From Dehalococcoidia bacterium (GTDB taxonomy: Bacteria > Chloroflexota > Dehalococcoidia > Lucifugimonadales > UBA3495): a stretch of 64,000 bases of DNA. This document shows positions 12,182 through 60,882 of this stretch, one piece after another. Under the pieces are notes generated by a model. That model was not told where the DNA came from. It made no database searches and was given only the letters and a program-made list of their open reading frames with translations. Each line of letters starts with the position of its first letter. Position 1 is the first letter of the stretch. The stretch is from positions 836,411 to 900,410 of the forward strand of contig CBDEFY010000007.1 of assembly GCA_965237595.1 (NCBI GenBank), given 5' to 3'. A program made the translations under genes and the position numbers.

Positions 12182-13126
12182 TTAGTTGGACAGGTTTGGT
12201 GCAAAACTAAGTGGGAGTTCCGCCGTCTTTCCAAGGTCTGAGAACGCTCCGTTCGGTGCCCGTTTCCCATTGATTGACCGTTCATCTGATGGCGCCAAGT
12301 CTCCTTTGAGCACCTCAGCCGGTGTCCGGTAGCCCAAGGCCTGGTGGGGTCTTTGGTTGTTGTAGAAGCTGAAGTATGCGTCAGGCCCGGCCTTGGCTTC
12401 TCGCCCGTTGGAGTAGGCTTTCAGGTAGACCTCCTCGTACTTAACCGTGCGCCACAGCCGCTCCAACAAGATGTTGTCGGTGTAGCGTCCCTTCCCGTCC
12501 ATGCTGATTCTCACTCCGTGCTGCTCTAGGAGACCGGTGAAGGCTTCGCCGGTGAACTGGCTGCCCTGGTCGGTGTTGAAGACCTCTGGCTTCCCCTTGC
12601 CAAGCGCTTCCTCCAATGTCTCGACACAGAAATCAGCATCCAAGGTGTTGGAAAGACGCCAGGCCACCACGTACCGCGTGTACCAATCCATGATGGCCAC
12701 CAGGTATAAGAAACCCTTGGCCATGGGGATGTAGGTGATGTCGGCGGCCCACACCTGATTTGGTCTGGTGATCTCCATGCCGCTCAGGAGGTAGGGATAC
12801 ACCTTGTGCCCTGGCCCCGGCTTGCTGGTCCGGGGCCACCGGTAGATGGCACGTAGTCCCATGGTCCGCATCAGACGCTGGACCCGCTTCCGGTTCACCC
12901 TGTGACCTTGAGTGCCCAGCCAGACCCTCATGCGCCGCGACCCGTAGAAGGGGGTACTTAGGTACTGGTGGTCCATCGCCTTCATCACCGTCAGGTTCTC
13001 CGAGCAAGTCCCCTTGCGCCGGTAGTTTAGGCTGGACCTGCTGATGCTCAGTAAGGCGCACTGTCTCACTGTGGACAAGGCTGGGTGCCGCCGGTCCACC
13101 ATCTCCCGCCGCCGCTCCCGGCTCAT
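12182..13126 (-). CDS. IS3-family transposase OrfB (rve integrase core)
   Basis: 314 aa. [61 protein letters not shown]. Confidence 0.9.
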
Positions 13127-16547: not shown

Positions 16548-16955
16548 GTGTCCCAATTAGAAGTAAGCAAAGCAGAGGCCGCCGAGGAACGAAGCGAGCA
16601 GACCAGGTCTTTCGTCCGTACAGTGAAGGCGGCTGCCCGACGTAAGTACACCTCCGAAGACAAGATCCGAATTGTTCTGGAGGGCTTCCGCCGCGAGGTC
16701 ACAGTCAACGACCTGTGCCGGCGGGAGGGGATCAAGCCCCACTCCTACTACTCGTGGACCAAAGAGTTCATGGAGGCGGGCAAGGAGAGGTTGACCCGTG
16801 ACTCGGTTCGGGACGCCACTCAGCATGAGGTAGGGCAGCTCAAGCGAGAGAACGGGGAACTCAAGGAGCTAGTGGCCGATCTGTCGCTGGAGGCGTACCG
16901 TCTCAAAAAAACGGCCATCCCCGTGCCCCAGGACGCCACCGGTACCAGCGGATGA
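16548..16955 (+). CDS. IS3-family transposase OrfA
   Basis: 135 aa. KYTSEDKIRIVLEGFRREVTVNDLCRREGIKPHSYYSWTKEF followed by a leucine-zipper-like tail. Confidence 0.9.
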   Translation: MSQLEVSKAEAAEERSEQTRSFVRTVKAAARRKYTSEDKIRIVLEGFRREVTVNDLCRREGIKPHSYYSWTKEFMEAGKERLTRDSVRDATQHEVGQLKRENGELKELVADLSLEAYRLKKTAIPVPQDATGTSG

Positions 16956-17938
16956 GCGCCCCGGAGAAGGCAGAGGTAGTTACCAAAGTATCCTCGTCTC
17001 CCCTCCCCAAGCGAAAGGTCCTCAGAGAGCTGGGCATCCCTAAGAGCACCTACTACCGGTGGCTCAGACGCCAAGACCAACAAGGACTTGAGGACCGACC
17101 AGGAGGCGATCAGGCACCATGGAACCGTCTTACTATTCAGGAAGAACGCTCAGTCCTGTTATCAGCCAGAGAGATGCCAGAGCTGAGCTGCCGTCAGCTG
17201 GCCGCGTGGATCACCGACAACCAGGGCTTCTCAGTCTCAGAGTCCAGCGTCTACCGTATCCTGGGCAGGGAGGGCCTAGTGAAGCGGCCTGAGATGCGGT
17301 TGGCCGCGGGGAAGGAGTACCACCGCAAGACCACAGGACCTCACCAGATGTGGGCCACCGATGCCTCATACTTCAGGGTGGTTGGTTGGGGCTACTACTA
17401 CCTGGTCACCGTTATGGACGACTACTCCCGCTTCATCCTGGCTCACAGGCTTCAGCAAGATATGACGGCCGACTCCTTCATCGAGGTGGTCCAGGATGCT
17501 GTGGACACGACCAGCATGGACCAAGTTCCAGTCACAGACCGCACCAGGCTGCTGAGTGACAACGGTCCAGGCTATGTCTAAAGAGCATTCAGGGACTACC
17601 TGGGGATGGTTGGCATCAAGCACATCCTAGCAACTCCTTTCCACCCTCAGACCAACGGGAAGCTGGAGCGCTACCACCAGACCATCAAACGGGACGTCAA
17701 CCAGGTGCCTTATGAGTTGCCCGCCGACCTTGAGGCTGCTATCGCGGCCTTCGTCAGCTACTACAACTACCGGCGCTATCACAAGGCTCTGGGCAACGTG
17801 ACACCATCAGACGTGCTCAAGGGAAGACGGCAAGAGATCCTACAACGCAGGAAGGAGGTGAAGGCTCAAACCACCGAACGGCGACGACGCTACAACAGGG
17901 CCCTCAGGGAGCTCACCAGACCTCCATCCAGCCCCTGA
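16952..17938 (+). CDS. IS3-family transposase OrfB (rve) carrying an in-frame TAA at 17579..17581
   Basis: ORFs 16952..17581 and 17606..17938 share one frame: ...[45 protein letters not shown]. The D, D and E regions lie on both sides of the stop. Confidence 0.8.
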
Positions 17939-23875: not shown

Positions 23876-24211
23876 CTACAGCGGACTGCCGCCCAGCAGA
23901 CCGGCGAACCGGAGACTCCACAGCACGGCCGCTATTACGGTGGATGCAATCAACGTAACCGTGGCCCGGTTCTTCCACGCGGGTCCCCGCCAACTGCCAT
24001 GGGATGGCGCCAGCCACCAACCCCGCGCCAACATGAGCAGGGTGATGACCAAGAACGGCCAGGTGAGCGCCTGCAACGCAGGCGCCAAGGCCAGCCCGGT
24101 TGATGTCCCGCCGAAAACACCGAGCAGGCCCGGGACCACTCATCACCAAGGAAGTGGCAGCAGTCCGCTGAGCAGGCCTACAAAAGGCTTTTCCACGTGC
24201 AGTAGTTTCAT
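23876..24211 (-). CDS. MerT-like small membrane protein with tandem in-frame TGA TGA (candidate Sec-Sec, or a pseudogene)
   Basis: ATG 24211: MKLLHVEKPFVGLLSGLLPLPW, then TGA TGA at 24145..24140, then VVPGLLGVFGGTSTGLALAPALQALTWPFLVITLLMLARGWW... in the same frame. Confidence 0.5.
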
Positions 24212-24308
24212 GTTCCTCGAACCTGTTTTGTCAGATGGATTAGGAACTAGAGGCTATTTCAAAAACCGGTACGAACCGCGGTCAGGTCCCTATTTTAAGA
24301 TACAAGGC

Positions 24309-24671
24309 TCAGTCCTCCACCAAAGTCCGGGTGACGTCCACGGTGGCGTAGGACCAGGCAATCTTGAAGGGTGTTGTGCCGGTGTTGATCAGCCGGTGTT
24401 GGGCGCCCGGCGTGATGAAGGCGGCGTCGTACTGGCGCACTTGGTTCTCTTGTCCGTTAATCATCAAGATGCCCTCACCCTCGATCACAATCACCGACTC
24501 TTCGGCGTTGTGGTAGTGGGTGGTGTTGGATGTGCCCGCCTCGAAGGTGGTGATGCCGCTGGAAATCTCGGTGGCGCCTACCTCTTTGGTAACGCTGCTG
24601 GCGACGGTGACTCCCGGAGCGCGTTCCAGGCTGCTGACTTCTTCTCTTTTGATCACCCGTGGTTCAGCCAT
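24309..24671 (-). CDS. cupin-domain protein
   Basis: MAEPRVIKREEV...THYHNAEESVIVIEGEG...ITPGAQHRLINTG. ATG 24671. Confidence 0.8.
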   Translation of the reverse strand: MAEPRVIKREEVSSLERAPGVTVASSVTKEVGATEISSGITTFEAGTSNTTHYHNAEESVIVIEGEGILMINGQENQVRQYDAAFITPGAQHRLINTGTTPFKIAWSYATVDVTRTLVED

Positions 24672-29855: not shown

Positions 29856-30842
29856 TCAGGGGCTGGATGGAGGTCTGGTGAGCTCCCTGAGGGCCCTGTT
29901 GTAGCGTCGTCGCCGTTCGGTGGTTTGAGCCTTCACCTCCTTCCTGCGTTGTAGGATCTCTTGCCGTCTTCCCTTGAGCACGTCTGATGGTGTCACGTTG
30001 CCCAGAGCCTTGTGATAGCGCCGGTAGTTGTAGTAGCTGACGAAGGCCGCGATAGCAGCCTCAAGGTCGGCGGGCAACTCATAAGGCACCTGGTTGACGT
30101 CCCGTTTGATGGTCTGGTGGTAGCGCTCCAGCTTCCCGTTGGTCTGAGGGTGGAAAGGAGTTGCTAGGATGTGCTTGATGCCAACCATCCCCAGGTAGTC
30201 CCTGAATGCTCTTTAGACATAGCCTGGACCGTTGTCACTCAGCAGCCTGGTGCGGTCTGTGACTGGAACTTGGTCCATGCTGGTCGTGTCCACAGCATCC
30301 TGGACCACCTCGATGAAGGAGTCGGCCGTCATATCTTGCTGAAGCCTGTGAGCCAGGATGAAGCGGGAGTAGTCGTCCATAACGGTGACCAGGTAGTAGT
30401 AGCCCCAACCAACCACCCTGAAGTATGAGGCATCGGTGGCCCACATCTGGTGAGGTCCTGTGGTCTTGCGGTGGTACTCCTTCCCCGCGGCCAACCGCAT
30501 CTCAGGCCGCTTCACTAGGCCCTCCCTGCCCAGGATACGGTAGACGCTGGACTCTGAGACTGAGAAGCCCTGGTTGTCGGTGATCCACGCGGCCAGCTGA
30601 CGGCAGCTCAGCTCTGGCATCTCTCTGGCTGATAACAGGACTGAGCGTTCTTCCTGAATAGTAAGACGGTTCCATGGTGCCTGATCGCCTCCTGGTCGGT
30701 CCTCAAGTCCTTGTTGGTCTTGGCGTCTGAGCCACCGGTAGTAGGTGCTCTTAGGGATGCCCAGCTCTCTGAGGACCTTTCGCTTGGGGAGGGGAGACGA
30801 GGATACTTTGGTAACTACCTCTGCCTTCTCCGGGGCGCTCAT
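29856..30842 (-). CDS. IS3-family transposase OrfB with the same in-frame TAA (30213..30215)
   Basis: ORFs 30213..30842 and 29856..30188 share one frame. Products are identical to copy A. Confidence 0.8.
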
Positions 30843-44282: not shown

Positions 44283-44690
44283 GTGTCCCAATTAGAAGTA
44301 AGCAAAGCAGAGGCCGCCGAGGAACGAAGCGAGCAGACCAGGTCTTTCGTCCGTACAGTGAAGGCGGCTGCCCGACGTAAGTACACCTCCGAAGACAAGA
44401 TCCGAATTGTTCTGGAGGGCTTCCGCCGCGAGGTCACAGTCAACGACCTGTGCCGGCGGGAGGGGATCAAGCCCCACTCCTACTACTCGTGGACCAAAGA
44501 GTTCATGGAGGCGGGCAAGGAGAGGTTGACCCGTGACTCGGTTCGGGACGCCACTCAGCATGAGGTAGGGCAGCTCAAGCGAGAGAACGGGGAACTCAAG
44601 GAGCTAGTGGCCGATCTGTCGCTGGAGGCGTACCGTCTCAAAAAAACGGCCATCCCCGTGCCCCAGGACGCCACCGGTACCAGCGGATGA
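44283..44690 (+). CDS. IS3-family transposase OrfA (copy C)
   Basis: Identical 135-aa product. Confidence 0.9.
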   Translation: MSQLEVSKAEAAEERSEQTRSFVRTVKAAARRKYTSEDKIRIVLEGFRREVTVNDLCRREGIKPHSYYSWTKEFMEAGKERLTRDSVRDATQHEVGQLKRENGELKELVADLSLEAYRLKKTAIPVPQDATGTSG

Positions 44691-45673
44691 GCGCCCCGGA
44701 GAAGGCAGAGGTAGTTACCAAAGTATCCTCGTCTCCCCTCCCCAAGCGAAAGGTCCTCAGAGAGCTGGGCATCCCTAAGAGCACCTACTACCGGTGGCTC
44801 AGACGCCAAGACCAACAAGGACTTGAGGACCGACCAGGAGGCGATCAGGCACCATGGAACCGTCTTACTATTCAGGAAGAACGCTCAGTCCTGTTATCAG
44901 CCAGAGAGATGCCAGAGCTGAGCTGCCGTCAGCTGGCCGCGTGGATCACCGACAACCAGGGCTTCTCAGTCTCAGAGTCCAGCGTCTACCGTATCCTGGG
45001 CAGGGAGGGCCTAGTGAAGCGGCCTGAGATGCGGTTGGCCGCGGGGAAGGAGTACCACCGCAAGACCACAGGACCTCACCAGATGTGGGCCACCGATGCC
45101 TCATACTTCAGGGTGGTTGGTTGGGGCTACTACTACCTGGTCACCGTTATGGACGACTACTCCCGCTTCATCCTGGCTCACAGGCTTCAGCAAGATATGA
45201 CGGCCGACTCCTTCATCGAGGTGGTCCAGGATGCAGTGGACACGACCAGCATGGACCAAGTTCCAGTCACAGACCGCACCAGGCTGCTGAGTGACAACGG
45301 TCCAGGCTATGTCTAAAGAGCATTCAGGGACTACCTGGGGATGGTTGGCATCAAGCACATCCTAGCAACTCCTTTCCACCCTCAGACCAACGGGAAGCTG
45401 GAGCGCTACCACCAGACCATCAAACGGGACGTCAACCAGGTGCCTTATGAGTTGCCCGCCGACCTTGAGGCTGCTATCGCGGCCTTCGTCAGCTACTACA
45501 ACTACCGGCGCTATCACAAGGCTCTGGGCAACGTGACACCATCAGACGTGCTCAAGGGAAGACGGCAAGAGATCCTACAACGCAGGAAGGAGGTGAAGGC
45601 TCAAACCACCGAACGGCGACGACGCTACAACAGGGCCCTCAGGGAGCTCACCAGACCTCCATCCAGCCCCTGA
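44687..45673 (+). CDS. IS3-family transposase OrfB with the same in-frame TAA (45314..45316)
   Basis: ORFs 44687..45316 and 45341..45673 share one frame. Confidence 0.8.
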
Positions 45674-50090: not shown

Positions 50091-51480
50091 CTAGCCAGGT
50101 GCCAGCCGAAGCCGGCTGATCCGTTCTAGTATCCCGGTCAGCATTTCCCTGGTTGCCAGCACCTCGGCAAGCTGAAACACCAGCCTCCTTGCGTGGCGTA
50201 CCAGTCGCCCACCCGTCTTGATCAGCCTGGTCTGAAGACTGGTCAGAGTCCAGTGCTTCATATCCTCCGGCAACACCAGCCTTCTCATAAAGTTGCCCAG
50301 GTTGTAAGTCAGGACGAACAGCCATAGTCTCACCTGGTTGGCCACGAACTTGTGGCAGGAAAGCCGGGTCCAGTTCAGGGCGTACTTGCCCTCCTTGATC
50401 CACTGCTCCGCCGTGCCACGGCCATTGTAAAAGCGGACTATTCCTTTGGGTGGATAGCTCAGGTTGGTCACGATGAAACCAACCCTGGGAAATAGCTCCC
50501 CCTGATGCCACTCTACTTTAGCCACCACTCGCCTGGGCAAGTGCCAACTCTGGGCCTGATAGGCAAAGTCATGGTAGGAGACGCTAGGCTCCCGGGATGG
50601 CCATTCGGTAGGACGCTCCAGCAAGGGTTGGATCTGCTCCTGAATTACCTGATTGGCGGGAAGCCGGATGGCGTACCCGATCTTTCCTTGTTCCAGATAC
50701 TCGTATAGCTCCGGCTTGGCAAAAGCAGCGTCACCCCGGAACAGCAACCGCAGTCCTTTCTTCTGGTATCCTTTCACCACCGGCTCAAGGAGTTCCTGCC
50801 AGCCATCGGCACTATGCACGTTTCCGGGTCGTAGCGTCGCTCCTTCGCAATCCCCAAACTGGTTGAACAGAAAGAGGGGATGATAGCAGACACACTCGAA
50901 GTGCCCGTTGTAGGCGGCTCCTTCCTGCTGACCATGCACTGGACTCTCCGAACTGTCCATGTCCAGAATCACTCGCCGGTGTGGAGTGTGAGCCATGGCC
51001 AGCTCCACCCACTGGGGATTCATCAGGGCCAGCCCCTTTAGGTTGTCCTCTTGAGTCAGAGTCTCCGTCTCAAAACGGCTCATGGTGTTGGTTCTGGCGG
51101 CGTTGCGGTCTGAGCCTTGCCAGCCCACGACAACTCTCATGGCTGGGTCTTGGGAAAGACGTTCTGCATCGTTGGTATCATCGTAGTCGGCCAAGCGGCT
51201 GTAGATGGACTGGCGGAGCAGAGGGACCAGGTGGTGGCGGATGTTGCGGCCGGTACGGCTTTCCTGGAGATAGTCGGAGGCTATGGGGGTAAGGTCCAGG
51301 GCGTCATCCAGTTCTCGGAATGCCAGCAGTCCGGCGTCGGAGGTGATGGTAAGGTCCAGGGCGTCATCCAGTTCTCGGAATGCCAGCAGTCCGGCCGGAG
51401 GTGATGGTGGCACCATGTAACTCCAGCCGGATTTGGGGATTGAATTGGAGCCGAAGAGAGGCCTTTTCGCGGTCACCCAT
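50091..51480 (-). pseudogene. IS1380-family transposase, frameshifted by a 60/58-bp tandem duplication
   Basis: The canonical start MGDREKASLRLQFNPQIRLELHGATITS runs out of frame. The rest closely matches the intact copy-2 protein (by-eye alignment). Confidence 0.8.
51288..51405. repeat. tandem duplication (60 nt + 58 nt) inside the transposase gene
   Basis: GGTAAGGTCCAGGGCGTCATCCAGTTCTCGGAATGCCAGCAGTCCGGCGTCGGAGGTGAT is repeated. The second unit lacks 2 nt (GGCGTCGGA versus GGCCGGA). Confidence 0.85.
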
Positions 51481-55035: not shown

Positions 55036-55338
55036 GTGAGGGAGGAGTGGGACATGTCAAAAGAGCGGAGGAAGCACAGCCCAACATTCAAGGCCAAGGT
55101 GGCCCTGGAAGCGGTGAAGGGTGAAGAGACGGTGGCCCAACTGGCCGCCCGCTACGAGGTCCATCCCGGGCAGATCCAGGCCTGGAAGAAGTCCTTGTTG
55201 GAAGGAGCGGTCGGCGTCTTTGGTGGGAACCAAGACAAACGCCAGAAGAGCGATGCGGTCCTTGTTGCCCGGCTCTATCAGCAGATCGGCCAACTGAAGG
55301 TTGAGCGGGATTTCTTGGCGGAGAGGCTCGGTCCATGA
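55036..55338 (+). CDS. IS3-family transposase OrfA (copy 2)
   Basis: Identical 100-aa product to 13123..13425. Confidence 0.9.
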
Positions 55339-56279
55339 GCCGGGAGCGGCGGCGGGAGATGGTGGACCGGCGGCACCCAGCCTTGTCCACAGTGAGACAG
55401 TGCGCCTTACTGAGCATCAGCAGGTCCAGCCTAAACTACCGGCGCAAGGGGACTTGCTTGGAGAACCTGACCGTGATGAAGGCGATGGACCACCAGTACC
55501 TAAGTACCCCCTTCTACGGGTCGCGGCGCATGAGGGTCTGGCTGGGCACTCAAGGTCACAGGGTGAACCGGAAGCGGGTCCAGCGTCTGATGCGGACCAT
55601 GGGACTACGTGCCATCTACCGGTGGCCCCGGACCAGCAAGCCGGGGCCAGGGCACAAGGTGTATCCCTGCCTCCTGAGCGGCATGGAGATCACCAGACCA
55701 AATCAGGTGTGGGCCGCCGACATCACCTACATCCCCATGGCCAAGGGTTTCTTATACCTGGTGGCCATCATGGATTGGTACACGCGGTACGTGGTGGCCT
55801 GGCGTCTTTCCAACACCTTGGATGCTGATTTCTGTGTCGAGACATTGGAGGAAGCGCTTGGCAAGGGGAAGCCAGAGGTCTTCAACACCGACCAGGGCAG
55901 CCAGTTCACCGGCGAAGCCTTCACCGGTCTCCTAGAGCAGCACGGAGTGAGAATCAGCATGGACGGGAAGGGACGCTACACCGACAACATCTTGTTGGAG
56001 CGGCTGTGGCGCACGGTTAAGTACGAGGAGGTCTACCTGAAGGCCTACTCCAACGGGCGAGAAGCCAAGGCCGGGCTTGACGCATACTTCAGCTTCTACA
56101 ACAACCAAAGACCCCACCAGGCCTTGGGCTACCGGACACCGGCTGAGGTGTTCAAAGGAGACTTGGCGCCATCAGATGAACGGTCAATCAATGGGAAACG
56201 GACACCAAGCAGAGCATTCTCAGACCTTGGAAAGACGGCGGAACTCTCACTTAGTTTTGCACCAAACCTGTCCAACTAA
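55335..56279 (+). CDS. IS3-family transposase OrfB (copy 2)
   Basis: 314 aa with a handful of substitutions (about 8 by eye) versus copy 1. Confidence 0.9.
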
Positions 56280-56293
56280 TTGGGTCCACCTCA

Positions 56294-56430
56294 GTACCAG
56301 GTGGACGTGTATCTACGGATCCGACGGGCGGTGATGGTGGATGGGATGAGCATCCGGGAGGTCTCCCGGGTGTTCGGGTTGCACCGGGACACGGTGCGCA
56401 AGATTCTGGCCTACTCAGCGCCGCCGGGCT
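56294..56430 (+). pseudogene. IS21-family IstA, N-terminal HTH scrap
   Basis: YQVDVYLRIRRAVMVDGMSIREVSRVFGLHRDTVRKILAYSAPPGY, squeezed between the IS3 copy and the IS1595 copy. Confidence 0.6.
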
Positions 56431-57145
56431 ACATCCCGTCAACGAACTCCTTGGCCGAGTGGTTGACGGCCTTATGCGGGCGCCTCAACCCCACGTAGGC
56501 CGATGCTTCGTCCGTGTAGACGATGGTGTCGGCTAACGTATGCTGATGCACGAATCCTTGGAGCGTAGACCTGTCCACGGACTCTACCGGCATGGCGGTT
56601 ATCTGGTTAGTCTTCCGGTCCTTCATCCCCACGACGGCCGCCTTGCCAACCGTCCCGCGAGTGTGGAGCTTCTTGCCCTTGTGCTTGTTGGTTTCCTTGC
56701 CCCCGATAAAGGTTTCATCGGCTTCGACGGGCCCATTGAACAGAGGATCACCGCCCTGCATGGCCTTGCGGATACGGTGGAGCATGTGCCAAGCGTTCTT
56801 TTGAGCAATCCCCAGGTCGCGGTGAAGCTTCATGCTCGATACGCCCTTGAGGTTTGTAGTCACGAGGTAGATCGCAATGGCCCACTTGCGCATCGGCAGG
56901 TTGGAGCCCTGCATGAGCGTACCGAGCTTGACGCTGAAGTAGGAGCGACAATCGGAGCACCAGTAGGGCATGGGAGTAGCGTTCGGAACTTCGCTCGTCT
57001 TGATGCTGCCACACTTGGCGCAGGCCCGGCCATTAGGCCAACGGGTTTGCTCGAACCACTTGCGGGCCGAATCCTCGTCGGGGAACATGTCAAACAGTTG
57101 TACAAGGCTGATTCCGATTCTGTGGGACTTCCCAGGGCCTGCCAT
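56429..57145 (-). CDS. IS1595-family transposase (C-terminally truncated, 238 aa)
   Basis: Zinc ribbon CAKCGS...YWCSDCRSYFS. DDE part ...ETFIGGKE...VYTDEASAY. The stop is created at the junction. Confidence 0.8.
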   Translation of the reverse strand: MAGPGKSHRIGISLVQLFDMFPDEDSARKWFEQTRWPNGRACAKCGSIKTSEVPNATPMPYWCSDCRSYFSVKLGTLMQGSNLPMRKWAIAIYLVTTNLKGVSSMKLHRDLGIAQKNAWHMLHRIRKAMQGGDPLFNGPVEADETFIGGKETNKHKGKKLHTRGTVGKAAVVGMKDRKTNQITAMPVESVDRSTLQGFVHQHTLADTIVYTDEASAYVGLRRPHKAVNHSAKEFVDGM

Positions 57146-57324: not shown

Positions 57325-57867
57325 CTAACCGTCAACCAAGTTTTCGATCGCCTGGGGCGCCGCTATACAGGCCCGTTCCAATAGCTCTCCATTGGTCAAG
57401 CATACGATTGGATGCTCGATGATTGCCAAGCCGTAGTCGCGGTTGCCCCGCATGCGGGACATGGCCCGGGCCTGACTAACGAAGGGCCGAGTGGTCAGAA
57501 CCACCGAGGGCACACCCAGCAGCTCGGTCTCCATTGCGTCGTGCACACTGCACGCGGTGCAGGACCCTCATTCGGCAGTGGCGTGAATCACCGCGTCGCA
57601 CTTAGCCGCGAACTCCTTCAGGGCATCGGAACTGGCGGGCCACTGGTGGCTGCCCTTGTTGTATTCCATGATGCCTTTGATGTCGTAGCGCTCTTTGATC
57701 GTGGCGGCAATCATCCGCAACAACTCTTCCGAGTGAGGCTTGTTGTTGGAAAGCAAGCCCAGGGTTTTTCCGTTCAAGGTAGGAGGGCGGGGCGCCAAGA
57801 GCGCCGGGCCGTGATCGTTCTCGTCTCGCGGGTCCAGGGTTACCAACATCTTCTCAGGGGTTGCCAT
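57325..57867 (-). CDS. UGSC-motif (seleno)protein, TGA 57568..57570 read as Sec
   Basis: ORFs 57568..57885 and 57325..57546 share one frame: ...KCDAVIHATAE-TGA-GSCTACSVHDAMETELLGVPSVVLTT... The stem CTGCAC/GTGCAG starts 6 nt after the TGA. Confidence 0.75.
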
Positions 57868-57874
57868 ATTCGCA

Positions 57875-58147
57875 TCAGCTCCCAACGTCGATTTTTCGAG
57901 TCACCGGCCGACTGCTGCCCCAGGAAGGAATAACGTCGATAAAGGCCCCGGCGGAGCCCCCGGCGGCAACGACAGTAATCCGGCCGGGGTCGGCCACGCA
58001 ACCAACAAGCTGCTCTTGGTCGGTAAAGTTTTCTGGATGTTCCACGCGCCGCCAGGCGATCCATTCCCTGGCAGGTAGCCGGGCCTTTTCCCAGAGAAAC
58101 TCTTGTACTTGCTGCCTGGACCAGCCGGCTTCGGCCACGTATTGCAT
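57875..58147 (-). pseudogene. C-terminal part of the split gene upstream of the UGSC ORF
   Basis: MQYVAEAGWSRQQVQEFLWEKARLP... It joins in frame to ...VVLSPEVMQ at 60883 once 58148..60882 and one TTGCAT copy are removed. Confidence 0.65.
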
Positions 58148-58456
58148 TAGTATTCCTCATACACGCCGTCAACCATCCCATCGAGCGTACCAAACCATCT
58201 GTCGGCGTGGTGAACTGGCGTTCGATGGGCAGCGGAGGTGGCTTTCACCACGTTTGCACTCCCTTCGAACTCCTCCAGGCACGCACCTCTGATGACCTCA
58301 AGGATATTCGCTACCCTGGTGCTGGATGAAGCCCGGCGATACGCCCCAACACTTGCCGGAATATCTCCCGGGACACTGCCACTTCGGCAAGTTGAAACAC
58401 CAACCTCCTGGCATGCCGCATCAGACGTCCACCCATCTTGATGAGCTTGGTCTGAA
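58148..58456 (-). mobile_element. IS1380-family 3'-end remnant (third, more diverged copy)
   Basis: Encodes ...VQTKLIKMGGRLMRHARRLVFQLAEVAVSREIFRQVLGRIAGLHPAPG-stop, homologous to the C-termini of copies 1 and 2, plus part of the downstream end region. Confidence 0.65.
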
Positions 58457-58800
58457 CCTTTATCCTCTATTTCTTTGCCACCTGGTGACCCCACTGCCGC
58501 GCCGAGTTACGGACGCTGCATGAGTTGACAAGCCAGTTCGGTGACGTGGCAGTTGTGGCTGTGGGCACCGACCCCAACGAGGGGTTGGAGAAGATCAGAT
58601 CATATAGAGATTCGCAAGGGTATACCTTCCCAATGGCCGTGACCGCCTCGGATACCATCCGTTCCTACCGAGTAACAAGCCAGTCAACGAAAATCGCCAT
58701 AGATAGAAACGGAGTCGTCCGAGTACGGTCCGGCTTCGGTACCCAGGGCAAGGGGTGGTGGCGGGACTTGTTCACGAAGCTGAATCAGGACTCCAGCTAG
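58457..58800 (+). pseudogene. thioredoxin-fold redoxin (TlpA/ResA-like) with U-x-x-C motif, N-terminally truncated
   Basis: TFILYFFATW-TGA(58486..58488)-PHCRAELRTLHELTSQFGDVAVVAVGTDPNEG...YTFPMAV...TKIAIDRNGVV. A SECIS-like hairpin GCGCCG-AGUUA-CGG(A)CGC lies at 58499..58516. Confidence 0.7.
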
Positions 58801-59183: not shown

Positions 59184-60882
59184 CCTGTGCGGCGGGAACT
59201 ATAGTACGGTATCCTGAGCGCGTCAACTGCGCTCCGATTCACTCAATTGCTCCACTCTCATAGGATATCCATCGTCCTAACGAGCGTAGAAATTCCAAAT
59301 CCTCTGCCCTTGCCCAAGCGTCTCCCTCGTGGCGGCCCATTTACTCTTGACGACCCCATAACTGTCCTAAATACCGGTGCTCTCAAAGCAAGCTAGCCAG
59401 GTGCCAGCCGAAGCCGGCTGATCCGTTCTAGTATCCCGGTGAGCATTTCCCTGGTCACCAGCACCTCGGCAAGCTGAAACACCATCCTCCTGGCATGGCG
59501 TACCAGTCGCCCACCCGTCTTGATCAGCCTAGTCTGAAGACTGGTCAGAGTCCAATGCTTCATATCCTCCGGCAAAGCCAACCTTCTCATGAAGTTTCCC
59601 AGATTGTACGCCAGAACGAACAGCCATAGCCTCGCCTGGTTGGCCACGAACTTGTGACAGGACAGTCTGGTCCAGTTCAGGGCGTACTTGCCCTCCTTGA
59701 TCCACTGCTCCGCTGTGCCACGGCCATTGTAAAAGCGGACTATGCCTTTGGGTGGATAGCTCAGGTTGGTCACGATGAAGCCTACCCTGGGAAATAACTC
59801 CCCCTGATGCCACTCCACCTTGGCTACTACTCGCCGGGAAATACTCCAGCTCTGGGCCTGGTAAGTGAAGTCGTAGTAGGAGACGATCGGCCTCCTGGAA
59901 GACCAGTCGGCAGGTCGTACCAGCAGGTGCGCGATTTCTCTCTGAAGTACCGCGTTAGCTGAAAGCCGGATGGCGTACCCAATCATCTCTTGTTCCAAGT
60001 ACTCGTACACCTCTGGCTTGCCAAAGGCGGCATCACCCCGGAACAACAGCCGCCGTCCCTTCCTCTGGTATCTTTTCACCACCGGCTCAAGGAGTTCCTG
60101 CCAGCCCTCGGCGCTATGGACGTTGCCGGGGCGTAGCGTCGCTCCTTCACAATCGCCGAACTGGTTGAATAGAAAGAGGGGATGATAGCAGACACACTCG
60201 AAGTGCCCATTGTAGGCGGCACCCTCCTGATGGCCATGCACTGGACTCTCCGAGCTGTCCATGTCCAGAATCACTCGCTGGTGTGGAGTATGGGCCATAG
60301 CATCTTCCACCCATTGGGGATTCATTCGTGCCAGCCCCTGCAGGTTGTCCTGTTGGGTCAGAGTTTCAGTTTCAAAGCGGCTCACGGTGTTGGTGCTGGC
60401 GGCGTTCCGGTCTGATCCTTGCCAGCCCACGACGACTCTCATGGCTGGGTCTTGGGAAAGGCGTTCGGCATCATTGGTGTCATCGTAGCCGGCCAAGCGG
60501 CTGTAGATGGACTGTCTGAGCAGCGGGACGAGGTGGTGTCGGATGTTGCGACCGGAGCGGCTTTCCTGGAGATAGTCGGCAGCAATATGGGTAAGGCCCA
60601 GGGCATCATCCAGCTCTCGAATGGGCAAGAGTCCGGCATCGGAAGTGATGGTGGCACCGTGAAACTCCAGACGGACTTTGGGGTTGAACTGGAGCCGGAG
60701 AGGGGTTTTGTCGCCGTCACCCATCAGGTGCCTCCGGGGTTGTTACGCTATCTGAAGAATCTTACTATTCTAATGAATGTATTATAGCCGAGATGTTGGT
60801 GAAAAGTTCATGAGACGACTACAAAAGCAAGAACGTTGCCTATATACCGCATCACACTGTTATCCTAACTGGGAAATATGGG
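59184..60882 (-). mobile_element. IS1380-family IS, copy 2 (about 1.7 kb, intact transposase)
   Basis: Ends are CCTGTGCGGCGGGAAC... and ...TGGGAAATATGGG. The immediate flanks do not repeat each other. Confidence 0.8.
59393..60724 (-). CDS. IS1380-family DDE transposase
   Basis: 443 aa. FHGATITSDAGLLPIRELDDALGL, RGDAAFGKPEVYEYLE, YNGRGTAEQWIKEGK. Confidence 0.9.
   Translation of the reverse strand: MGDGDKTPLRLQFNPKVRLEFHGATITSDAGLLPIRELDDALGLTHIAADYLQESRSGRNIRHHLVPLLRQSIYSRLAGYDDTNDAERLSQDPAMRVVVGWQGSDRNAASTNTVSRFETETLTQQDNLQGLARMNPQWVEDAMAHTPHQRVILDMDSSESPVHGHQEGAAYNGHFECVCYHPLFLFNQFGDCEGATLRPGNVHSAEGWQELLEPVVKRYQRKGRRLLFRGDAAFGKPEVYEYLEQEMIGYAIRLSANAVLQREIAHLLVRPADWSSRRPIVSYYDFTYQAQSWSISRRVVAKVEWHQGELFPRVGFIVTNLSYPPKGIVRFYNGRGTAEQWIKEGKYALNWTRLSCHKFVANQARLWLFVLAYNLGNFMRRLALPEDMKHWTLTSLQTRLIKTGGRLVRHARRMVFQLAEVLVTREMLTGILERISRLRLAPG

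Follow-up and report, generated by a model that had tools for sequence, protein, structure and literature searches.

A small gene on the minus strand of contig CBDEFY010000007.1 from a Dehalococcoidia bacterium (assembly GCA_965237595.1) is the subject of this analysis. It lies in a stretch of 64,000 nucleotides (positions 836,411 to 900,410 of the contig) that was analysed as a whole and is called the window here. The gene contains two consecutive in-frame TGA codons, and an original prediction, made from the letters of the window, had placed them exactly where a MerT-like membrane protein would carry its Cys-Cys pair and had raised the idea that they encode a pair of selenocysteines (Sec, U in protein sequences). 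The arrangement is as it was described there, with TGA-TGA at 24145..24140, an ATG at 24211 upstream and 87 codons downstream. Comparison with relatives indicates that 23876..24211 is one gene and not two. We estimate a probability of roughly 0.6 that both UGAs are read as Sec and that the protein handles Hg(II) or another soft metal as MerT does, the better-supported half of this combined statement having been weighted more heavily. Taken singly, the reading of both codons as Sec is highly probable and a metal-relay role, which we argue from genomic context, is modestly favoured. The features of this gene, called the UU gene below, are as follows.

24214..24218, minus strand: Shine-Dalgarno-like GAGGA, read directly from the sequence, 2 nt before the ATG, a short spacing
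23876..24211, minus strand: putative membrane selenoprotein gene, 111 sense codons plus TAG (M1..W22, U23, U24, V25..L111), its frame kept in 113 sequences
24146..24211, minus strand: N-terminal 22 codons from the ATG at 24211, MKLLHVEKPFVGLLSGLLPLPW in the window sequence, forming the first half of hydrophobic helix 1 and ending in an invariant P-W
24143..24145, minus strand: first UGA, predicted to be read as Sec23; the column holds 103 TGA and 10 TGC (Cys)
24140..24142, minus strand: second UGA, predicted to be read as Sec24; the column is TGA in 113/113, that is, in all intact family members
24089..24130, minus strand: RNA hairpin H1, a candidate selenocysteine insertion sequence (SECIS), recognised by pairing, covariation and synonymous recoding
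24067..24085, minus strand: RNA hairpin H2, GCGCCYGC-GUU-GCRGGYGC, 8 bp with an invariant GUU loop, 3 nt after H1

The frame runs on past the pair for its 87 codons (VVPGLLGVFGG...GGSPL) to a TAG at 23878..23876. At 24140..24145 the independently assembled contigs of four other public runs are identical to the window, with TGA-TGA unchanged; these are assembled contigs and not raw reads.

A word-indexed protein search yielded about 57 relatives of the window protein, and loci were fetched from GTDB species genomes (42) and from metagenomes (80), the frame being read upstream of each match; individual loci are cited below by numbers with the prefix L. All but one of the GTDB loci (41/42) come from genomes labelled Chloroflexota, Dehalococcoidia or SAR202, and so does each sequence with the motif whose genome bears a name. 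The window and 112 related loci, 113 sequences in all, have an invariant Trp codon followed in frame by the pair, which is TGA-TGA in 103 and TGC-TGA in 10, with the frame kept on both sides, and this W-(TGA/TGC)-TGA signature persists down to about 43-50% protein identity. That two nonsense mutations should have struck neighbouring codons by chance, already thought unlikely, is hard to reconcile with such a record. The two columns hold UU or CU and never anything unrelated to Cys or Sec. Cys-Cys occurs in none of the 113 sequences, and a HMMER search of 1.84 billion representative proteins with a profile of the 87 residues found no full-length Cys-Cys homologue: there were only 23 matches, all of them fragments or read-through calls (WW, CW). 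A Cys form of the second column was seen in neither collection. The Cys-Sec forms make up one clade of eight and one separate lineage in a neighbour-joining tree, so the change between U and C at the first column probably arose more than once.

A few copies look different. L004 (5980-6075) and L057, which have the same sequence, represent a decayed copy in which the Trp codon has gone from TGG to TAG and the first TGA to TTA, H2 is mutated and the frame is broken. Copies in L010, L060, L067, L068, L105 and L115 look frameshifted and, with L004 and L057, are pseudogenes or assembly errors. Some contigs of relatives that span the UGA pair are described as 'metatranscriptome'; their libraries are labelled WGA and may contain DNA, so they are not counted as proof of expression.

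Nearly all database homologues are exactly 87 amino acids long and begin at the codon after the pair because gene callers stopped at the TGAs. Two read-through gene calls present the pair as WW (P0007) and CW (P0080); the WW reading, PLPW-WW-VVPG, is that of a 112-residue call by JGI, with the pair translated as Trp. The 16 codons upstream of the pair (consensus EKPFVALLSGLLPLPW) nevertheless bear the marks of coding sequence: across 86 distinct sequences the entropy at codon positions 1/2/3 is 1.05/0.57/1.49, and in-frame stops number 0/86, whereas the two other frames contain stops in 59 and 19 sequences. The downstream 87 residues are conserved at the protein level as well. GTG follows the pair in 62/91 distinct sequences; the other 29/91 have ATC, GTC, GTA, ATA, ATT, GTT or GCC there, so the downstream part has no conserved start, which argues for a single gene. 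As had been noted in the window sequence, the hydrophobic stretch is unbroken across both stops, and the leader is conserved as protein with its helix running over the pair.

Two RNA hairpins lie in the coding sequence after the pair, and they were analysed in an ungapped alignment (A2) of 87 distinct sequences. Counted from the second UGA, the base of H1 lies 10 nt downstream; counted from the first, 13 nt. H1 is about 42 nt long, with a conserved lower stem (GGCCUGCUCGG / CCGGGCUGGCC, with a U.U mismatch) and an upper stem that is variable in sequence, yet the hairpin forms in nearly all of the 87 sequences. Its apical loop has 3-7 nt in most of them and is usually G-rich. Pairing in H1 holds in 95.5% of cells, and pair 31-66 is represented by CG (46), UG (27), GC (5), UA (3), AU (1) and GU (1). 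The synonymous sites of H2 are nearly invariant (GCG for Ala, UUG for Leu); at its pair 78-86 (CG 46, UA 29) the third base of a Pro codon covaries with a Gln/Arg codon, and the window copy has a fold energy of -16.5 kcal/mol (z -3.8). Jointly, H1 and H2 are paired in 95% of cells, compared with 32-53% for slid-partner controls, and 0/500 shuffles reached the observed pairing or covariation.

An alignment-independent test gave the same picture. When each sequence was recoded synonymously with codons from the family's own usage, the mean z was -2.63 for H1 and -2.46 for H2, with values below -1.64 in 82% and 85% of sequences respectively, and three control segments of the same gene lay between -0.17 and +0.15. 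Folding of the window RNA as a single sequence was uninformative (z -0.55 and -1.53), so the case for the hairpins comes only from comparative analysis. Rfam reported neither SECIS nor any other family over the region at gathering or permissive thresholds. The 6-bp stem GTCCCG/CGGGAC, the one SECIS-like structure offered by the original prediction, does not hold up: it is paired in 57.9% of cells, 368/500 shuffles reach that level and it is not conserved. A conserved hairpin 10 nt after the second UGA and a second hairpin behind it, both with covariation and recoding signal, take its place.

The canonical bacterial SECIS, of the E. coli fdhF type, is a hairpin that follows the UGA at a distance of about 11 nt and is bound by SelB at an apical loop containing G/U. 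H1 resembles it in beginning 10 nt after the second UGA and in its usually G-rich loops, and is a SECIS candidate in the right position although unusually long. It differs from the canonical element in its far greater length and in a loop that is not conserved; furthermore, a second and better conserved hairpin with a GUU loop follows, and two UGAs share the element. H2 is a candidate too, with the compact, conserved form of other SECIS elements, and folding of H1 may bring it near the UGA (9 + 3 nt through the junction). The CU forms, with their single UGA, keep both hairpins, which argues against a strict design of one hairpin per UGA.

The stretch 24057..24099 turns up again on many different contigs from the same samples. 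Over 24055-24105, covering the 3' half of H1 and H2, depth rises about ten-fold in Logan contigs of several runs, and many short Logan contigs with different flanks carry this stretch, which points to a hairpin-region sequence that many family members of one sample share. For motifs resembling H2, the rest of the window offers only chance one-mismatch matches inside three copies of an insertion sequence (IS).

The lineage very likely decodes Sec, as had been supposed, because a tRNA-Sec gene lies on the contig of a relative and selenoprotein genes are found in the window and beside relatives. The tRNA-Sec gene, at L021:667-762 (minus strand) with anticodon TCA, was recognised by ARAGORN and by Rfam RF01852 (68.4 bits); it is about 5 kb from the UU gene and adjoins an integrase-like fragment and a thioredoxin gene. 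The 1.1-Mb contig that carries L021 also bears a second copy of the family, L014. In the window, the two further open reading frames (ORFs) with TGA at a redox-Cys position, at 57568 (E-U-G-S-C) and 58486 (W-U-P-H-C), are both present:

57325..57885, minus strand: UGSC-family selenoprotein gene, separate from the UU gene, with TGA at 57568..57570 (...HATAE-TGA-GSCTAC)
58486..58800, plus strand: thioredoxin-fold gene, ResA/DsbE-like and possibly a remnant, with TGA at 58486..58488 (...FFATW-TGA-PHC, that is, W-U-P-H-C)

The first matches the NCBIfam model UGSC_fam (NF041046) with an E-value of 1.1e-33 and 116 bits (cutoff 125), and a hairpin CUGCAC-CGC-GUGCAG, read from the sequence, begins 6 nt past its UGA. 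In the second, a hairpin with an AGUUA loop, likewise read from the sequence, begins 11 nt past the UGA. This ORF (58300-58800) has a stop 11 codons before the TGA, its N-terminal part is missing and it lies between transposase-like genes at 56429..57145 and 59393..60724; it may be a remnant.

Beside the UU gene of some relatives there is also a gene for a TlpA/ResA-like lipoprotein with an in-frame TGA, for example at L005:4863-5378 on the plus strand (…LYFSFPG-U-PTC…), which gene callers split in two. It occurs as well in L001, L002, L009, L011, L017, L021, L022, L044, L049, L050, L052, L054, L085, L098, L099 and L104, the match in L098 and L099 being weak (28% identity, motif U-AKC); the protein of L030 is a Cys version (NCPPC). 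A conserved 8-bp hairpin, GGGCUGGA-GGC-UCCAGCCC, begins 10 nt after its single UGA and shows compensatory changes (GCGCUGGAGGCUCCAGCGC). The spacing of H1 from the second UGA is thus that of the SECIS of another selenoprotein gene in the same lineage. The stops of the 36 longest non-overlapping ORFs of the window are TAG (19), TAA (11) and TGA (5), with one ORF left open at the window end; at about 60% G+C, more TGA would be expected than in this rough count, which includes some spurious ORFs.

The function of the protein is suggested by the company that its gene keeps in relatives. A merA gene lies directly upstream on the same strand in 19 related loci that are spread over the whole family tree. 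The upstream neighbour in L033 clears the cutoff of the MerA equivalog model (527.7 bits against 454.45), the upstream MerA proteins match the core MerA model over their full length, and the C-terminus of the intact copies is (S/A)CCVE in 17/18 and SCCIG in one. A gene for a MerR-type regulator is nearby in 21 loci, of which the tree includes 17; in L011 an ArsR/SmtB-type regulator (HTH_5), a 119-residue ORF some 1.8-2.1 kb upstream of the pair, stands before merA instead. Thioredoxin-fold (TlpA/ResA-like) lipoproteins are encoded in 17 loci and are usually UxxC selenoproteins (CPPC in L030). Thirteen loci encode a GDCCVxC protein (NF041374, 87 bits), mostly immediately upstream of the UU gene (L037:6199-6435, plus strand, and L008, L009, L015, L020, L021, L029, L081, L083, L091, L096, L100 and L105); the copies here are all Cys forms (GDCCVFCSY) and may serve as cytoplasmic metal acceptors for the neighbouring MerA proteins. 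A 79-residue hydrophobic membrane protein (MVMLTLFGSIAVGVMFYSYW…), which matches no Pfam or NCBIfam family, is encoded immediately next to the UU gene, on one side or the other, in 15 loci (for example L037:5528-5767, plus strand). Weak MerE-like CPCH membrane proteins occur in two loci (MerE E-value about 1e-3, below cutoff), as a 101-residue ORF about 1.6-1.9 kb upstream of the pair in L030 and, in L028, as a 114-residue ORF between merA and the UU gene that ends in GGCC; such operons can therefore hold a second putative Hg carrier.

Some gene orders serve as examples. L030 has merR, the thioredoxin-fold gene, the merE-like gene, merA and the UU gene, and L001, whose protein is 80% identical to that of the window, has merR, the UxxC gene, merA and the UU gene. 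Close relatives of the window are not uniform in this respect: in L005 the order is cupin, merR, UxxC gene and UU gene, and in the window a cupin gene (24309..24668) is followed directly by the UU gene, with a gene for an HpaB-like monooxygenase also upstream. With mer context spread over the whole tree, the link to mercury looks ancestral and partly lost in the clade of the window. In some mer operons the TlpA-like UxxC gene holds the usual place of merP/merT.

The 111-residue protein has three hydrophobic segments, with UU or CU in the first followed by xxP. In an AlphaFold model of the database protein P0007, which carries WW where the window protein would have UU, helices span 8-18, 23-42, 44-71 and 79-104, and a break falls at LPLPW, immediately ahead of the pair. 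Arg, Lys and Trp abound in the loop that joins helices 2 and 3, and by the positive-inside rule this basic loop would be cytoplasmic, which gives the topology of MerT; both the loop and the N-terminus are probably cytoplasmic. Most members have no Cys apart from the pair, which is their sole redox-capable site. The resemblance to MerT (PF02411, Tn501/Tn21 type) extends to size (111 and 116 residues), the three hydrophobic helices, the vicinal chalcogen pair in helix 1 followed by x-x-Pro (UUVVPG here, CCLGPL in MerT), the basic helix 2-3 loop and, in 19 related loci, operons with merA and a MerR-type regulator. An hhalign alignment to MerT sets UU on its CC with the three helices in register.

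There are also differences from MerT. Sequence similarity is not significant, the pair is Sec-Sec or Cys-Sec and never Cys-Cys, the family is confined to Chloroflexota, and the UU gene lies downstream of merA, whereas the MerT gene lies between merR and merA. Scans of the read-through protein against Pfam and NCBIfam, with U written as C, found no family; a profile search against PDB sequences found nothing relevant; and a per-member Pfam scan of 49 members gave only weak matches to Cyt_bd_oxida_II, MerC and MerT. The window protein has no match to Pfam MerT at E <= 10 and scores an E-value of 1.9 with NCBIfam MerTP_fusion, and neither it nor the 49 members match MerE (PF05052). The predicted likeness to MerT therefore stands in size, in the three helices, in the vicinal pair with xxP and in the merA genes upstream, and falls where membership of the MerT profile is concerned: on present sequence comparisons the family is MerT-like by architecture and context and is not a member of the MerT family.

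Other mercury proteins are comparable in part. ABB16073.1 and the NCBIfam family NF045683 (MerT/CopZ fusion-like heavy-metal transport selenoprotein) are likewise selenoproteins, with a predicted role in carrying mercury or heavy metals across the membrane; they belong to PF02411 proper and have a single Sec in C/SxxU, whereas the UU family matches neither model. MerE, MerF and MerC, too, are small mer-operon proteins of the membrane whose first helix bears a Cys motif, and the Gly-rich stretch that comes after the motif is similar (LLGVLGGTG against LLGLLGGTS), but the number of helices and the motif itself (CPC or CxxC) differ.

In the mechanism that we propose, both consecutive UGAs would be read as Sec, giving a vicinal Sec-Sec in the midst of the first hydrophobic helix (...LPLPW-U-U-VVPGLLG...). 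Recoding would depend on SelB and be directed by H1 and/or H2 inside the coding sequence; in the simplest case a single SECIS region would serve both codons by two successive deliveries of SelB and Sec-tRNA three nucleotides apart. The presence of TGC at the first column in 10 loci, in at least two lineages, speaks for Sec rather than a stop at that codon. The 111-residue product would reside in the inner membrane, where its selenolate pair would bind Hg(II) or another soft metal, possibly supplied by the periplasmic UxxC lipoprotein in a MerP-like role, and would hand the ion to cytoplasmic thiols, either the C-terminal Cys-Cys of MerA or the GDCCVxC protein. The functional half of this scheme is drawn from the mer-operon context in relatives. 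A bolder version, which we think rather unlikely, would make H1 and H2 a dedicated bipartite signal for tandem Sec, with each hairpin holding one SelB-GTP-Sec-tRNA at the mRNA entrance; the second UGA would then be decoded at once after the first, and the product, with its vicinal diselenol embedded in the membrane, would carry Hg(II) in strict dependence on selenium and would have no counterpart in nature that relies on Cys alone.

Several observations weigh against the combination of Sec-Sec and a MerT-like function. On the protein side, the AlphaFold model is only moderately confident (predicted local distance difference test score, pLDDT, 69) and Foldseek found no match for it in the PDB. 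Pfam MerT matches 2/49 members at E >= 0.28 and MerC 4/49 at E >= 0.12, neither of them significant, and the hhalign comparison with the MerT alignment has a probability of 1.6%, which is not significant either; hhalign against the neighbouring weak MerE-like CPCH protein gives 15.6% over 21 columns with the motifs out of register. The helix 2-3 loop has the consensus SHGxxWRSxWxRR and no conserved Cys, so that the second, cytoplasmic Cys pair of MerT is missing. On the genomic side, the 64-kb window holds no tRNA-Sec gene and neither merA nor merR, hence none beside the window copy, and about three quarters of the loci, the window included, have no adjoining mer gene, many of these loci being short. 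On the RNA side, the H1 loop is 25-32 nt after the second UGA, against 12-20 nt in three other selenoprotein genes examined, and H2 is 55 nt from it. Two consecutive SelB-dependent events should be inefficient, judging from E. coli, and Hg-selenolate binding is so tight that transfer to Cys acceptors is not obviously favourable.

The alternative that survives best, though we consider it unlikely, is that the Sec-Sec pair acts as a redox relay, cycling between diselenide and diselenol and passing electrons, across the membrane or along it, to the thioredoxin-fold lipoprotein as CcdA or DsbD does for ResA or TlpA. The lipoprotein gene adjoins in 17 loci and usually encodes a selenoprotein itself (FPG-U-PTC), the clade of the window is without merA, and no site in the protein other than the pair is redox-capable. 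Adjacent residues can form a diselenide only under strain, however, and the two Cys used by CcdA/DsbD-type relays stand apart in a pseudo-symmetric six-helix fold that has no counterpart here. The placement of the lipoprotein also fits a MerP-like metal-binding role; within mer operons (L001, L030) its gene sits between merR and merA, the usual place of MerP/MerT, and the neighbourhood offers no recurrent gene for a cytoplasmic electron donor.

It is improbable that only the second UGA is decoded efficiently as Sec, with the first acting as a leaky or regulatory stop, as a selenium attenuator or as a codon for a near-cognate tRNA (Trp or Cys), so that the mature protein would lack a second Sec. 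Such a view would suit the columns, in that the second is always UGA and the first sometimes UGC; it would suit the spacing, the base of H1 being 10 nt from the second UGA, as in the TlpA-like SECIS, but 13 nt from the first; and it would avoid consecutive SelB events, which are expected to be slow. Against this, the first UGA has been kept in 103/113 sequences across deep divergence with Cys, which Sec replaces, as its sole alternative, whereas TGG or other codons would be expected if Trp or termination were tolerated, and a stop ahead of an essential second Sec would yield only a peptide of 22 residues.

The databases imply a third possibility, very improbable in our judgement, in which a 22-codon leader with a tandem stop precedes a separate 87-codon protein that starts at the adjacent GTG. 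The nearly uniform 87-residue calls and the 62/91 sequences with GTG agree with it, but the non-start codons in the remaining 29/91 do not. Nor does the conservation of the leader as protein, with a hydrophobic helix continuing over the pair; in addition, TGC in place of the first TGA in 10 loci would join leader and stop differently, and structured RNA lies directly after the pair, where initiation needs an open site. There is a negligible chance that the gene is a pseudogene or the product of faulty assembly, or that UGA has been reassigned throughout the genome (code 4 or 25). One JGI gene call does read the pair as W-W, and TGA closes fewer of the long window ORFs than either of the other stops. 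But independent assemblies and runs agree on the pair, which occurs at more than 100 loci under purifying selection, TGA still terminates 5/36 of the longest window ORFs, in-frame TGAs are found only at Cys-equivalent sites of selenoprotein families, and the truly decayed copy (L004/L057) looks different.

The reading of the pair as Sec-Sec places the family outside what has been catalogued. Among the 119 prokaryotic selenoprotein families and subfamilies inventoried in 2026 there are motifs such as UxxC, CxxU, CU, UxxU and UxxxxU but no UU (PMC13188914, Table 1), which agrees with the original remark that a Sec-Sec pair would be unusual and is not known as a described MerT variant. The 'putative mercuric transport protein' of the inventory belongs to PF02411 and has the motif C/SxxU with a single Sec. 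Some prokaryotic selenoproteins do have two Sec close together, namely the UxxU metal-binding family NF041115, FmdB-family UxxU, Prx-like UxxU, TsoB (UxxxxU) and MbdU (two CU), and they too have more than one Sec per active or metal-binding site, several being tied to the handling of mercury or other metals (PMC13188914). Their Sec codons are at least two codons apart, whereas the UGAs of the UU gene are consecutive, so that one downstream element must act at two spacings. None of the selenoprotein models of NCBIfam release 20 matches the UU protein. The literature searched on tandem or adjacent Sec in bacteria, on SAR202 selenoproteins and on GDCCVxC proteins contained no description of the family, with the limit that subscription journals were mostly uncovered and an earlier description is possible. 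We file it as a putative new selenoprotein family and a putative new variant of Sec recoding in which consecutive UGAs are followed by a two-hairpin element.

On the usual view, bacteria insert Sec only where a SECIS hairpin stands at a set distance from one UGA, and each such insertion is slow. A family that keeps consecutive Sec codons at more than 100 loci would represent a natural test of this spacing rule, and of whether SelB acts twice running or is pre-loaded on two hairpins. To judge from the descriptions that were found, the product would be the first vicinal Sec-Sec site in a prokaryote. Selenoprotein families do not usually lack a Cys-Cys version, as this one does among the sequences found, which suggests a chemical need for selenium at the pair. 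The association with merA operons in SAR202/Dehalococcoidia ties the use of selenium to mercury handling in bacteria of ocean water, sediment and groundwater, and public annotation of the gene product as an 87-residue 'hypothetical protein' makes the family invisible to surveys of selenoproteomes and of mercury genes.

On its downstream side the UU gene of the window converges on a gene for a major facilitator superfamily transporter. The region is rich in insertion sequences: one transposase-like ORF is present in three copies (16952-17581, plus strand; 30213-30842, minus strand; 44687-45316, plus strand), another in two (12182-13126, minus strand; 55335-56279, plus strand), and two related IS4-like ORFs lie on the minus strand at 50091-51416 and 59393-60724.

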